DNA of 64,000 nucleotides from Octopus vulgaris (GCA_951406725.2 OX597818.1:31992001-32056000), one strand, 5' to 3'. Shown: positions 11,628 to 58,344, counted from the first letter of the stretch. A program made the numbers and translations. The notes: generated by a model not told the origin, from the letters alone.

Positions 11628-11840
11628 TAAATGTGACCTCGTGTGTACCGTTGGCGATTTTTTCCCTCTGTTTTCCCTTCTCTGGATCTTTCCTTCTCCT
11701 ATGTTTCCGACGAAGAGCTCCGCTCGAAACGTTAAACCTTCCTCCTTTCCTTCTTTCCTGAGCGTCCAATAATACTATATTTGTTCCACGTCCTCGCGTT
11801 GTTGTGTTTTTTTTTGTGCATTCTTGTTTGGATTAACTTT
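11628..11840 (+). mobile_element. ~210-bp hammerhead-bearing element inserted in (TA)n (Penelope-like pLTR or retrozyme-like)
   Basis: Near-identical copy at 56308-56516, 5' fragment at 44122-44165; (TA)n on both sides; contains HHR motif. Confidence 0.75.
11703..11737 (+). ncRNA. Minimal type I hammerhead ribozyme motif (variant core CCGACGA)
   Basis: gttt-CCGACGA-a-gagc(tcc)gctc-GAAA-cg-TT-aaac: stems I and II pair, stem III region is the palindrome AACGTT. Confidence 0.65.
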
Positions 11841-12619
11841 ATATATATATATATATATATATATATATATATATATATATATATATATATATATATACAT
11901 ATATATACACACTCACACTTGCTAGTAGACATAGACACATGCGAAGGTTGAACAGAAATTAGTGTATTAGGTAAAAAGTAACATGGTCGTTCGAACTGCA
12001 TATGTCAATAGAGAGATTCTCAGTTTTCGTTATACCGTTTCTCACACAGACGAATCAGGTAAGCCCGAGGTTTTAACAAAGACGCTGTGGCGGCTTCACC
12101 ATGGAATAGAACCTTGAACCATGTCTCTGTAGAGCTTGTAATCCACATGCCCATGTACGTGTATGCTGACAGGCATACATAAATAAATGAACACACACAC
12201 ACACACGCAGAGAGGCTCACATGTATGTACGAGGTCTTTGGAAGCAGAGAGATTAATATTTCAGTATGGACATTGCCATTATATTGAGGTAACTATAAAC
12301 TATATAACTCGCACTACAAAATGCATCACTTTTATGGCTGTCACAAACTCTCCGTATATTCCTTGGGATTCTTTGTTCCAAATTCGTTCAAAGTTGTTAT
12401 ATAAGAATTCATTTTGTTGTAAAAATTGACGAGAATTGTGCAGCATGCAGTGTGCATTGTGCAGCTAACCATGAACAACCTATTTCCAGCGCACATTCCT
12501 TGGTACATTAATATTGCTTCATCCTTATTCTCGTTTCAAATCAATGCATATAGTGCGTATGTGTATATGCGTACATGTGTGTGTATATGTATATATATAT
12601 ATATATATATATATATATA

Positions 12620-12948
12620 TATGGCTCAGTGCTTAGAGCGTTGAGCTTACGATCGTGAGGTTGTGAGTTCGAATCCCGGATCGGGCAGCGTGTTGCGTTC
12701 TTGAGCAAGACACTTTATTTCACGTTGCTCCAGTTCACTCAGCTGTAGAAATGAGTTACGACGTCACAGGTATCCAGCTGTATCGGCTGTTGCCTTTCCC
12801 TTGGATAACACTTGTGGCCTGTAAAGGGGAGGCCAGTATGCATGGGCGACTGCTGGTCTTCCATAAACAACCATGGCCGGACTTGCGCCTGGTGGGGGGT
12901 AACTTTCTAGGTGCAATTCCACGATCAGTTATGACCGAAGGGGGTCTT
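12620..12948 (+). mobile_element. tRNA-derived SINE (head type 2 + tail type Z)
   Basis: tggctcagtgcttag..gagttcgaatccc, core ttcttgagcaagacactttatttcacgttgctccag shared with 6468-6790; different tail. Confidence 0.75.
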
Positions 12949-13050
12949 AGCATATATATATGTATGTGTGTATATATATATATATATATATATATATATA
13001 TATATATATATATATATATATACACTTACATATGTTTGAACGTACGTAAT

Positions 13051-13712
13051 ATACAAGGTGTAGCAGGGAAGACGGACGTTTTTGAAAAAGTCATAAACTC
13101 ATTAATTTTAGCTGCAAACAAAATTTATTGATATCAAATTTTGAATAAGCATTTGTCAAAATCAAGTGTGGAAAACAACCTCCATCATCAGGTGTCCGTT
13201 TTCATTGATGAATTTCTGAAGGCGTTCTTGGAAGTTGGCTTCCGCTCTCTCCAGAATCGTTCCGTCGATTTGGGGGAAATCCACGCCAACAGCTTTCTTC
13301 AAATCGTCCAGTGTACGAGTCTTATGCGCATACACACGTGCTTTGAGGTTTCCCCACAAGAAATAATCACACGTGGACAAATCAGGGGAACCCAGGGAGC
13401 GGAAAAACGTTAGCAAACCTGGAAATGAGGCCGTCACAGAAAAGAGAGCGAAGAACGTCGTAATTCAGGCACAAAAAAGTTTATCATTTCGATGCAACGC
13501 TCGAAGTTCACAATAACATTATTTCCATTACTATCTACGAAAAAGTACGGGTGGAAACGTAAGATTGTGTTGCAGGTGGGAACAGCCTGATTTCGGTGAA
13601 TGTTGAAGTGGTACCGAAGTACATGCTGAACTGCTATGACAGACTGGTTATTCTTCACATGACTGGTCGTTAGCAAGCATATGATGCTCTATCGTCCAAA
13701 ACGCGATGGCTT
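13051..13712 (-). mobile_element. Tc1/mariner-superfamily transposase remnant (internally deleted, frameshifted)
   Basis: SPDLSTCDYFLWGNLKARVY motif of DDE/D transposase C-terminus; N-terminal HFNIHRNQAVPT-like segment; terminus tacaaggtgt. Confidence 0.8.
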
Positions 13713-13739
13713 CACCTAAAAAAAAAAAAAAATGCTAAA

Positions 13740-14160
13740 GAGTGGCTGTGTGGTAAGTAGCTTGCTAACCAGCCACATGGTTCCGGGTTCAGTCCCACTG
13801 CGTGGCATCTTGGGCAAGTGTCTTCTGCTATAGCCCCGGGCCGACCAATGCCTTGTGAGTGGATTTGGTAGACGGAAACTGAAAGAAGCCTGTCGTATAT
13901 ATATATATATATATATATATATATATATATATATATATATATATATATATATATGTGTGTGTCTGTGTTTGTTCCCCTAGCATTGCTTGACAACCGATGC
14001 TGGTGTGTTTACGTCCCCGTCACCTAGCGGTTCGGCAAAAAGAGACCGATAGAATAAGTACTGGGCTTACAAAAAGAATAAGTCCTGGGGTCGAGTTGCT
14101 CGACTAAAGGCGGTGCTCCAGCATGGCCGCAGTCAAATGACTGAAACAAGTAAAAGAGTA
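13740..14160 (+). mobile_element. SINE family A
   Basis: Full match to family A. Confidence 0.9.
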
Positions 14161-14920
14161 TACCACAGACGTATGGTACCTGTCAGACATATGTCCCTTC
14201 TGTTGGAGCTGAGTAACTGGCATTTCAAAAACGTTCATCCTCTCTGTCACACTCTGTACATACACACGAATACCACACACACATATATAAATAAAAATAC
14301 TCAAAAACGCATTTGTATATATGTTTGTGCGTGTGTGTTTGCATGTGACTATGACGTTTATATATATATATATATATGTGTGTGTGTGTGTGTGTGTGAA
14401 GAGAAAATTTTAAAGCTTTTCAATGTAATATTAAAAATAAGACTAGACAGAAGAATATTCCACACATATATTTTCTGAGGCAAACTGAAATAAGCTCGAA
14501 TCCAGTATAGGTTGTGCGGACGTTTCAAGTTCATTCGTTAACTGATCGTCTATCTCATTCAACCCTGTTTAGGCGAGGAAGTAATCCATCTGCTGAATTT
14601 CATATCGCTCTGTAGCTGGAGGAAAATATTCCGGGTACTTTACTTGTCCTTCAAATATTGCAATCGCTTGACTCAGATCCAATAATCATTAGCAGCCAAT
14701 TTATATTTTATTTTTACTTTTATTTTATTATTATTTTTATCATTTTTATCATTACTTAATAATTATCTGTTTCTCTAATTTCTATTTATATATCCTTTGT
14801 GGTATCCCTTAATATTGTAGTGTCTCCCTTTTTTCGATGTAAACCCTACGTGTTTTTTGTGTTATATCTCATCCTATGATATTGTCCTCCATGCCTTGTG
14901 CCCTTTTAATGAATAAAAAA

Positions 14921-56051: not shown

Positions 56052-56260
56052 CTCTTTTACTTGTTTCAGTCATTTGATGTGGCCATGCTGGAGCATCGCC
56101 TTTAGTCGAGCAAATCGATCCCAGAACTTAATCTTTGTAAGCCTAGTACTTATTCTATCGGTCTCTTCTACTGAACTACTGGGTTACAGGGATGTAAACA
56201 CACCAGCATCGGTTGACAAGCGATGTTGGGTGTGACAAACACAGAGACACAAACGCATAC
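56052..56260 (-). mobile_element. SINE family A 3' half
   Basis: Tail and body match up to the internal microsatellite. Confidence 0.85.
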
Positions 56261-56307
56261 ATATATATATACATACATACATACATACATATATATATAT
56301 ATATATT

Positions 56308-56516
56308 CAAAATGTGACCGCGTGTGTACCGTTGTTGATTTTTTTCCTCTGTCTTCCCTTCTCTGGATCTTTCCTTCTATGTTTCCGACAAAGCGCTCCG
56401 CTCGAAACGTTAAATCCTCCTTCTTTCCTTCTTTCCTGAGCGTCCAATAATACAATATTTGTTCCACGTCCTCGCGTTGTTGTATTTTTTTGTGCTTTCT
56501 TGTTTGGATTAACTTT
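56308..56516 (+). mobile_element. Second copy of the 210-bp HHR-bearing (TA)n element; HHR at 56381-56415 degenerate
   Basis: Near-identical to 11628-11840; core reads CCGACAA and stem II has a mismatch. Confidence 0.75.
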
Positions 56517-57419
56517 ATATATATATATATATATATATATATATATATATATATATATATATATATATAACATGTGTGCGCGTGTGTGTGTGTGTGTGGT
56601 ATTTCTTTGTGTATGCTTTTATGAATATTTTGTCTTTATATTCTCGAGTATGTTTTGCGGTCTAATCATTACCAAATATAAATAAGAAAGGATCTTACAA
56701 CATTGTCTCTTATATTTTTTATCCAAAATTTTGCTTTTACTCCCAATTCGTTTCTCTCGATTTATCTCTCGGTCCTTTTCTGTCTCTTTTCAACCCTTTT
56801 CCCCTTAGCTCTGTATCCTTCACATGCCATATCGCCTCTTTTTATGCACACACCAATTGTCACAACCTCCTTTTGAAATACTCACATATATAAACACACA
56901 AACGAACAAATAACACATTTTATACTTTAATAACATATAACGCTGCAATTTTCACACCTTCTGGCGTTGCTGCATTACTCATCTAAATGCATATAAGCTC
57001 TTTGGAAACTGGATGTGTATCTAATGAAAACAACATACGTGCATACATACATACATAAATATATATATATATATACACAGGTATATATTTTTACACTTAT
57101 ATGTACAAATATCTCCATGCATTTATATATATGCATACATATATATATATATATTTATATAATATAAATAATTTATACATACATACATACACACACATAT
57201 ATATATATGTATATATATATATTATACACACACACACACACACACACACACACATATATATATATATATATGCATATAAATACAGTGTACATTTAAATGC
57301 ATGAGGTATCCATCATTAGGACTCCTTGCATGCTAGAGAGAACAGTTAAATACCCAACCACTTATAGGAAAAAAATTTCGAAGGAAATGAAAAATAAAAA
57401 AAACATTTACCATCTAACT

Positions 57420-57490
57420 CCTGGACCAATGGTTTCAGACTTTTTCTTAGCAAATAAAACAATTTGCTAGGTGAAGTTTCCTTCAGCAGG
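57420..57490 (-). ncRNA. Type I hammerhead ribozyme motif, GUC cleavage triplet
   Basis: Minus strand: cctg-CTGAAGG-aaactt..tagcaaat..atttgcta..aagtct-GAAA-ccattgg-TC-cagg. Confidence 0.7.
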
Positions 57491-57839
57491 TGCACCTTAG
57501 ATTAAATATATATACACGAGGGAATACAGTATATGCACCGTGCTTATACATTCTAATTTTTCAAATCTACCACGCAAGCGCTGCTCCTTCTCGGCAGTAA
57601 ATAAAAATGCCGGCTTTTCAATTCGAAAATTATCCAGAAAAAAATTATCAATAGTTAATAATATCGAAGGGTAATCAGAAATATTAGAAATTTACATTAC
57701 CAGTGGCCTAGCGTGTAAAAATTTAGTCAATAGACTATATATTATTCATATAAATACAGTGTACATTTAAGCACACAAGCGACATCCATCAGGACATATA
57801 CTGGATTGTCTCCTGTATATATATTCAATCTAAGGTGTA

Positions 57840-57912
57840 CCTGTTGAAGAAGACTTTGCCTAGCAAATTATTTTTTATTTACTTAAAAAAAGTCTGAAAC
57901 CATTGGTCCAGG
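57840..57912 (+). ncRNA. Type I hammerhead ribozyme motif, GUC cleavage triplet
   Basis: cctg-TTGAAGA-agacttt...aaagtct-GAAA-ccattgg-TC-cagg; consensus with the other copy restores CTGAAGA. Confidence 0.7.
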
Positions 57913-58344
57913 AGTTAGATGGTAAATGTTTTTATTTTTCATTCCCTTCGAAATTTTGTCCCCAATTGTGGTTTGGAATTTAACTGTTCTCTCTAGCGTG
58001 CAAGGAGTCCTAACGATGGCTGCCACTCATGTGCCTAAATGTACACGGTATTTATATGAATAATATATAGTCTATTGACTAAATTTTTACACGCTAGGCC
58101 ACTGGTAATGGAAATTTCCAATATTTCTGATTACCCTTTGATGTTATTAATTATATCTATGCATATATACATACATATATCTTCATACTTACATATATAT
58201 GTATATATGCATATATATATATATATACATATATACATGCACATATATATACATACATATATATATATGCATATATATATCTATATAATTTATATTATAC
58301 GATTGAACGCCACGCATCCATTTCTAAATAAGTTTATCTAAGTG

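Follow-up and report, generated by a model that had tools for sequence, protein, structure and literature searches.

Hammerhead ribozyme motifs in a 64-kb stretch of the Octopus vulgaris genome as probable 3' ends of Penelope-like retrotransposons

We analysed the hammerhead ribozyme motifs of a stretch of Octopus vulgaris DNA (GCA_951406725.2 OX597818.1:31992001-32056000), referred to below as the window; positions are counted along the whole 64,000-nt stretch, and the host genome is 2.8 Gb. The window DNA is very rich in microsatellites. Ten motifs listed in an initial annotation sort into seven high-copy families, A–G, whose copies in the window are presented in Table 1. In our reading, to which we give a probability of about 0.8, the motifs mark the 3' pseudo-long terminal repeats (pLTRs) of several families of Penelope-like elements (PLEs), mostly present as truncated stubs. 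Families B, C and E continue 5' into reverse transcriptase (RT) and GIY-YIG endonuclease coding sequence of three PLE types, Neptune-like, Hydra-like and Poseidon-like, respectively. A, D and G are most likely the same kind of PLE stub, and F would most likely be a tandem retrozyme that is non-autonomous and mobilised by these PLE proteins.

Table 1. Hammerhead-bearing repeats and their fragments in the window
Feature	Position	Strand	Description
Family A copy	11630..11838	+	PLE-type pLTR stub, truncated at its 5' end, with a (TA)n tract on either side
Second family A copy	56311..56514	+	Decayed core CCGACAA at 56385
Family A 5'-part fragment, short	44123..44165	+	Without hammerhead
Family B copy	55516..55738	-	Core CUGUCGA (A6U) at 55645; 3' end adjoins (TA)n
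Family C long arm	20611..20850	-	Canonical core at 20799, 3-bp stem III, ~70-nt 3' tail
Family C short inverted arm	20869..20990	+	Core at 20871; lacks the tail and has (TA)n at its end; 5' truncation lies within stem I
Family D long arm	21011..21290	-	Core CUGAAGA at 21209, stem II decayed, ~75-nt tail
Family D short inverted arm	21288..21343	+	Ends in (TA)n
Family E stub	38782..38930	-	Core UUGAUGA at 38865 (family CUGAUGA)
Family F partial tandem arm	57261..57790	-	Comprises the end of a unit, a spacer and most of the following unit; core CUGAAGG at 57486, decayed
Family F inverted arm	57791..58150	+	Core UUGAAGA at 57844 (family CUGAAGA)
Family G arm, real hammerhead	53640..53760	-	Core start 53732, decayed (two core changes)
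Family G inverted arm	53720..53850	+	With 3' tail
Further family G palindrome	11433..11584	.	Both arms truncated 3' of hammerhead core

A descriptor with at most one core mismatch and at least 4 bp in each of stems I and II finds six sites in the window, whereas 15 local dinucleotide shuffles average 0.07. Five of the ten listed motifs satisfy it (11703, 20725, 38826, 55614 and 57840); the other five fail it singly, and four of these come from families with a mostly complete hammerhead layout. The sixth match, at 6993 on the minus strand, has one core mismatch, lies outside the earlier list and is probably a chance match. The initial annotation had described a type I layout with a CUGANGA core at its sites. 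The exact core is found at 20725(-), 20867(+) and 21127(-) only, whereas the others deviate (plus strand: 11703 CCGACGA, 56381 CCGACAA, 57840 UUGAAGA; minus strand: 55614 CUGUCGA, 38826 UUGAUGA, 57420 CUGAAGG). Nine of the ten motifs lie inside real type I hammerhead repeats; the tenth, the 'atypical' plus-strand motif at 53669, was read on the wrong strand, as the aligned family G copies place the hammerhead on the minus strand with its core start at 53732.

Twenty evenly spaced 10-kb stretches of the genome (200 kb) contain 15 descriptor motifs, seven of them in a single tandem array, against 0–2 in 10 shuffles. The motif density of the window resembles that of this sample, so the window is about typical and the genome would hold on the order of 10^5 motifs by rough extrapolation (roughly 125,000–210,000 intact-looking ones, from 200 kb); the very high genome-wide number predicted earlier roughly holds. 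The hammerhead family is absent among the 150 of 464 matches listed in an Rfam scan of the window, which was rejected as a source of motifs because it is dominated by microsatellite matches to microRNA models. An origin of the motifs as chance matches in AT-rich, microsatellite-rich DNA is very improbable. Predicted monomer folding is unexceptional for five of the six window motifs (z -1.84 to +0.27, with C alone at -2.66), which, like the unlisted match at 6993, would suit such an origin, but the shuffle control proposed with the initial annotation contradicts it (6 against 0.07 in the window, 15 against 0.7 in the sample), the hammerhead layout is conserved family-wide, and the closing pair of stem I covaries, being G-C in A and C-G in B.

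The first-look candidates of a DNA search per family, all lower bounds, number 1446 (A), 1534 (B), 1245 (C), 1467 (D), 4378 (E), 3275 (F) and 1836 (G). The type I layout (CUGANGA / GAAA / UH, stems I–III) is the commonest copy type in C, D, E, F and G. Based on the parsed copies, the commonest core is CUGAUGA in C (16/20) and E (14/26, part of the 26 being regular-expression noise) and CUGAAGA in D (20/21), F (18/23) and G (8/12). The layout is kept in A and B also, but their cores deviate from the canonical one: CCGACGA (U4C) is found in 24/28 copies of A and CUGUCGA in 16/19 of B, all 19 of which carry A6U. Judged from their sequences, A and B look and vary like hammerheads but are core variants. 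At least five or six mutually unrelated elements had been proposed; there are seven families, but A and B are sisters (median identity 61% across the 3' region).

Concerning family B, the window copy appears to be a stub derived from the 3' pLTR of a Neptune-like PLE that is intact elsewhere. A pyrimidine-rich Neptune-like endonuclease, first met in a flank, has 14,521 genome candidates, and B is found downstream and in sense in 12/12 loci picked by it. Locus L284 contains, in this order, a B pLTR, an open reading frame (ORF) of 1092 aa, a second B pLTR and (TA)n, with the two hammerheads 4485 nt apart; the frame has an RVT_1 match, a CX4CxxC linker and a GIY-YIG match. Such tandem pLTRs flanking an ORF are seen for B only. 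In L284:1100-1700, the internal junction is TA-rich directly after the pLTR end and is followed by a pyrimidine-rich leader of ~600 nt before the ORF. A 428-aa RT beside a B copy was rejected as a partner, being a different, LINE-type (long interspersed nuclear element) RT on the opposite strand.

The long arm of family C is probably the 3' end of a Hydra-like PLE. Longer C copies continue 5' into fragments of RT and endonuclease whose motifs are Hydra-like (the endonuclease has CxxC and CxH around E/N residues), and C lies 290–680 nt downstream in 10/15 fetched endonuclease loci; the continuity of RT and GIY-YIG with the C hammerhead repeat is seen from fragments only. The E stub would likewise be the 3' end of a Penelope/Poseidon-like PLE, since longer E copies run 5' into the GIY-YIG coding end. 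Twenty E endonuclease loci were fetched from 150 listed matches (three having long frames and the other 17 taken from throughout the listing). A tRNA-like module directly follows the stop codon in 20/20 of them and the E hammerhead region is seen in 17/20; in the window stub, the module sits just 5' of the part retained. One locus contains a 569-aa RT–endonuclease frame, with an inverted truncated copy upstream. A database search with this frame yields 2989 relatives carrying RT domains. Like Penelope/Poseidon elements, the frame has no linker zinc finger; no longer homologues were found with the E endonuclease piece alone. The initial annotation had seen a guild of non-coding, non-autonomous elements moved by PLE RT/GIY-YIG proteins, and had suggested a search for family consensi adjoining such ORFs. 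The involvement of PLE-type hammerheads and proteins is supported by the ORF-linked copies of B, C and E at the counts given above; the guild itself is not, as these three families are truncated 3' ends (pLTRs) of protein-coding PLEs.

Several points weigh against the assignment to PLE pLTRs. The loci studied are the best-scoring matches and not random copies, and the Neptune, Hydra and Poseidon labels are given by motifs and not by a reference tree. Two Pfam matches are weak, the GIY-YIG of B at 17.1 bits (cut-off 22.6) and the RVT_1 of E at 27.7 bits (cut-off 29.6). In 5/15 C endonuclease loci, C is missing from the 1.1–3.4 kb fetched. No ORF linked to D, F or G is present in the fetched loci, nor was one reached in those of A, and the young A copies share only ~6 nt past the 5' end of the query, which also fits a short non-autonomous subfamily.

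An alternative along the lines of the initial annotation, which we consider unlikely, is that most copies derive from short non-autonomous masters (retrozymes or PLE-type short interspersed nuclear elements, SINEs) borrowing PLE proteins, autonomous relatives notwithstanding. The ORF-to-pLTR sequence is continuous in B, C and E, and one ORF-linked copy matches the window B copy at 86–93%, although the window-type core of B (CUGUCGA) differs from that of most ORF-linked copies (CUGUUGA, 9/12). The 5' ends are scattered in C, D, E and F. Young A copies have 5' ends close together, as short masters would produce, but older A copies extend at least 330 nt further 5' in 40/40 scored matches, to varying length, and two of the three fetched run on into long CA-rich sequence. 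Fixed 5' ends for A and B were dismissed as a best-hit artefact, being ruled out for B by the 12/12 ORF-linked loci and for older A by the 5' extension. D copies share several hundred bases 5', and G copies are cut close to the ribozyme. In favour of short masters are the tandem units of F, a 359-bp tandem hammerhead array elsewhere in the genome, and the non-autonomous hammerhead elements described in PMC7229834 and bioRxiv 10.64898/2026.07.22.740005.

The units of F are ~480 bp long and head-to-tail, with no ORF seen, and two hammerheads per dimer are found in L086 and L090. Direct tandems are present in 15/19 F loci and in none of the loci of A, B, C, D and G, and among A–G only F has head-to-tail non-coding units each with a hammerhead. 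F is most likely the sole good candidate for a non-autonomous retrozyme, so the retrozyme part of the initial annotation survives for F while it mostly fails for the rest. The array elsewhere (L216:2100-4770; G000:C1, ~20.002-20.005 Mb) consists of near-identical ~359-bp units, five on one strand and two inverted, ending in (TA)n; each unit carries a canonical hammerhead, and we read the array as a young non-LTR retrozyme with PLE-style inversion.

A (TA)n tract begins no more than 8 nt from the 3' end in 26/30 copies of A, 12/19 of B, 12/31 of C, 9/28 of D, 14/44 of F and 12/26 of G, but in only 1/31 of E (background 2.9%); the same holds for 6/7 A and 8/12 B copies that were met incidentally. 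The earlier claim that each element sits in or beside (TA)n stands for six families at their junctions and not for E. Loose proximity to (TA)n is weak evidence, because 28–36% of the window lies within 200–300 nt of a (TA)5 tract anyway. Two alternative 3' ends, with or without a tail of 30–75 nt, are found in C, D, E and G, and head-to-head pairs in 8/23 (C), 9/19 (D), 10/19 (E), 7/19 (F) and 7/19 (G) loci; neither inversion nor tail is seen in 29 A loci or 19 B loci. The combination of 5' truncation, inverted arms and optional 3' tail is present in C, D, E and G, and that of inversion and tandem in F. The tail and inversion signatures are described for PLEs in PMC8557442 and PMC11167929, and the insertion anatomy seen here in these two papers and PMC4209133. 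According to PMC8557442, (TA)n targeting goes with the linker zinc finger in PLEs. E is the sole family without the linker finger, which is seen in the ORF of B, and also the sole family away from (TA)n, consistent with that association.

As for the mechanism, a PLE protein would nick AT-rich DNA, and cDNA synthesis would begin internally in the RNA, 3' of the hammerhead, where two priming sites are available (both extrapolated from PMC11167929). Most copies would abort after 100–400 nt. Early abortion together with strand switching would give short, often palindromic stubs that always keep the ribozyme end, and hence many ribozyme-bearing stubs per full element. The hammerhead fold would be under selection in the master elements, while fast self-cleavage is probably unneeded for copying.

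The window copy of A at 11630..11838 has a minimal hammerhead with core CCGACGA (U4C) at 11707 and a palindromic stem III; the core is canonical in the older lineage of A and U4C in its youngest copies. Concerning B, 21 incidentally found copies of the lineage (window copy included; median identity 81%) have U at position 6 in 21/21, as do 11/12 ORF-linked copies. The base at position 7 is unconstrained (7 U, 7 C, 3 A, 4 G), and G is absent from position 17. Conservation of the remaining core positions is 90–100%, compared with 86% for the 3' flank (p = 3.5e-4, which is optimistic because the copies are related and the profile used to find them includes the core). We regard it as possible, if rather doubtful, that the A6U and U4C cores are catalytically dead or nearly so, with the hammerhead shape kept for PLE protein binding or folding. 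The constancy of U6, the intact tandem element included, would fit this, as would the in vitro behaviour of the related variants (A6C slow, U4C weak; PMC3088659) and the independence of insertion in vitro from cleavage (PMC11167929). However, the kept and freed positions in B follow catalytic rules, U4C still allows viroid infectivity (PMC3088659), and protein-assisted cleavage has been described (PMC11167929). The variants A6C, U4C and U3-A8 are listed in the available part of PMC3088659, which does not list A6U; no description of A6U was found in a literature search that covered mainly open-access papers. A6U fixed in an intact lineage is accordingly undescribed in the literature searched, the overall element class being known.

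The module of E contains tRNA-like A and B boxes followed by (AAT)n and is located between the stop codon and the ribozyme. The A box is found in 16/19 heads and a strict B box in only 8/19; where both occur, the A-to-B spacing is 43 nt in 6/6, which is tRNA spacing. The alignment score of the E head against a genomic tRNA-like sequence (L234:7041-7113, presumably tRNA-Lys(CUU)-like, with no ARAGORN call) is reached by 4/2000 shuffles; Rfam gives no tRNA match on one E copy. A 'tRNA-Ser' from relaxed ARAGORN was discarded as another repeat and no tRNA. E as a stand-alone tRNA SINE was also rejected, since the end of the PLE ORF precedes the head in 20/20 endonuclease-picked loci and reads continue 5' of the head. 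RNA reads on E amount to 6,569–8,907 per 11.5–12.9 million in three runs with a matching species label (possibly a related species). They are about equal on both strands, 80–82% of them continue into unlike sequence, and they form no read-end or start pile-up in the three runs. Such a pattern would be expected if E were carried passively within host transcripts, and it is uninformative about ribozyme activity. The odds are about even that the module is a dead passenger without promoter role, a tRNA retrocopy or an (AAT)n-tailed SINE that inserted into the 3' untranslated region of the master and has since been duplicated with it. The (AAT)n after the module, the few strict B boxes and the read pattern speak for a passenger; its presence in all 20 ORF-linked copies, the frequent A box and the constant spacing speak against it. 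Many copies start at or inside the module, which would also count against a passenger but is weak evidence because the search query began there. No direct description of a PLE hammerhead with a tRNA or RNA polymerase III (Pol III) module was found in the literature covered, which consisted mainly of open-access papers and did not extend to Repbase or Dfam.

Intact PLE ORFs (781 aa) are present in the genome. A joint claim may be formulated, namely that an intact, recently copied Neptune-like element keeps U6 through many subfamilies while all other constraints on the hammerhead are retained, with the protein rescuing a poor core or using the fold without cleavage, and that a Poseidon-like pLTR with a captured tRNA promoter acts as a built-in SINE; taken as a whole it is tentative and somewhat unlikely. 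If true, both would offer natural settings in which to examine what PLE hammerheads do. Canonical, U4C and A6U cores occur in sister lineages, of which one has an intact ORF, so that the need for cleavage and for protein assistance is open to direct testing, and the A6U lineage and the tRNA-bearing pLTR are worth follow-up. The uncatalogued non-autonomous set that had been supposed finds little support in the data, and the overall picture is published PLE biology (PMC4209133): minimal hammerheads that number in the thousands, most of them solo and spread over many families within a genome, are read there as truncated PLEs. PLEs are abundant and recently active in octopus (PMC13282606, PMC8967140), and neither main text mentions ribozymes. 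The annotation of PMC13282606 contains 893 recently active unclassified SINE families, and the words 'ribozyme' and 'hammerhead' are absent from its main text. Many hammerhead motifs are probably filed as unclassified SINEs. As the general picture is known already, the value of the present results is mostly for annotation.

Further hammerhead families are found outside the window. A young Neptune-like PLE at L187:244-3506 and 4380-4530 contains a 333-aa upstream frame and the 781-aa RT–endonuclease frame, the latter present in at least 15 matches; its pLTR hammerhead has a U3-A8 core swap. In a second Neptune-like family (L191, L199, L207, 3' untranslated region), the hammerhead of the pLTR matches that of D in its core and at the base of stem II, and this family could be a relative or partner of D. 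The two most abundant Neptune-like families of the GIY-YIG search were rejected as the source of A–G, as each has its own hammerhead. Others are seen at L159, L160, L163, L174, L217, L225, L230 and L231, L160 being again U4C. In the window, a ~110-bp repeat without visible hammerhead lies between (TA)n tracts at 53523-53637 and 55860-55965, beside the G and B copies. Tandem units of 184–217 bp at 691-1308, 9958-10329 and 50889-51256 belong to one abundant repeat, which we take to resemble a known octopus SINE. Fragments at 15382-15768, 17478-18984, 41151-42204, 21730-22309 and 44383-44718 presumably resemble R4/Dong, RTE and CR1 LINEs and a mariner transposase.

Compared with known systems, families A–G share with the minimal PLE hammerheads the short stem I, the extra base after A9 and the palindromic or absent stem III, as well as copy numbers in the thousands, mostly solo and spread over many consensus families, with few beside full ORFs, and the inverted pairs 100–700 bp apart (PMC4209133). 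The U3-A8 variant of that group is also found in a Neptune-like element of this genome. The available descriptions of the group include neither a fixed A6U core in an intact lineage nor a tRNA-like module in the pLTR. Based on Craig et al. 2021 (PMC8557442), the ORF of B has the CX2-5CxxC linker of the Neptune clade, that of E lacks the linker as in Penelope/Poseidon, and the endonuclease of C has the CxxC and CxH around E/N residues of the Hydra clade; these placements are by motif only, and A–G are unnamed in the part of that paper available. The Poseidon element from Anolis, PAc (Frangieh et al. 2024, PMC11167929), for which internal initiation, a tail, AT-rich nicking and in vitro insertion unaffected by cleavage-dead hammerheads are reported, resembles the present families in its two 3' ends and AT-rich targets, and lacks RNA-seq ends at the cleavage site, as does E. 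The hammerhead of PAc overlaps the ORF start, whereas the ORF of B starts about 700 nt after the hammerhead, and E differs from PAc by its tRNA-like module. Non-LTR retrozymes (PMC7229834; bioRxiv 10.64898/2026.07.22.740005) have short head-to-tail units with a canonical core and no ORF, as do F and the L216 array. F differs from them in that its ~480-bp unit, known here from DNA, occurs solely in complete or partial dimers that show PLE-style inversions. Cassandra terminal-repeat retrotransposons in miniature (TRIMs), with 5S RNA inside their LTRs, resemble E in having a Pol III-type promoter sequence inside a terminal repeat. The nearest precedent for E is found in the SINE-like hammerhead repeats of schistosomes (PMC6765202), where a Pol III-type promoter sequence stands directly ahead of the hammerhead. 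E differs from both in that its module belongs to a PLE that encodes protein and separates the stop codon from a minimal hammerhead.

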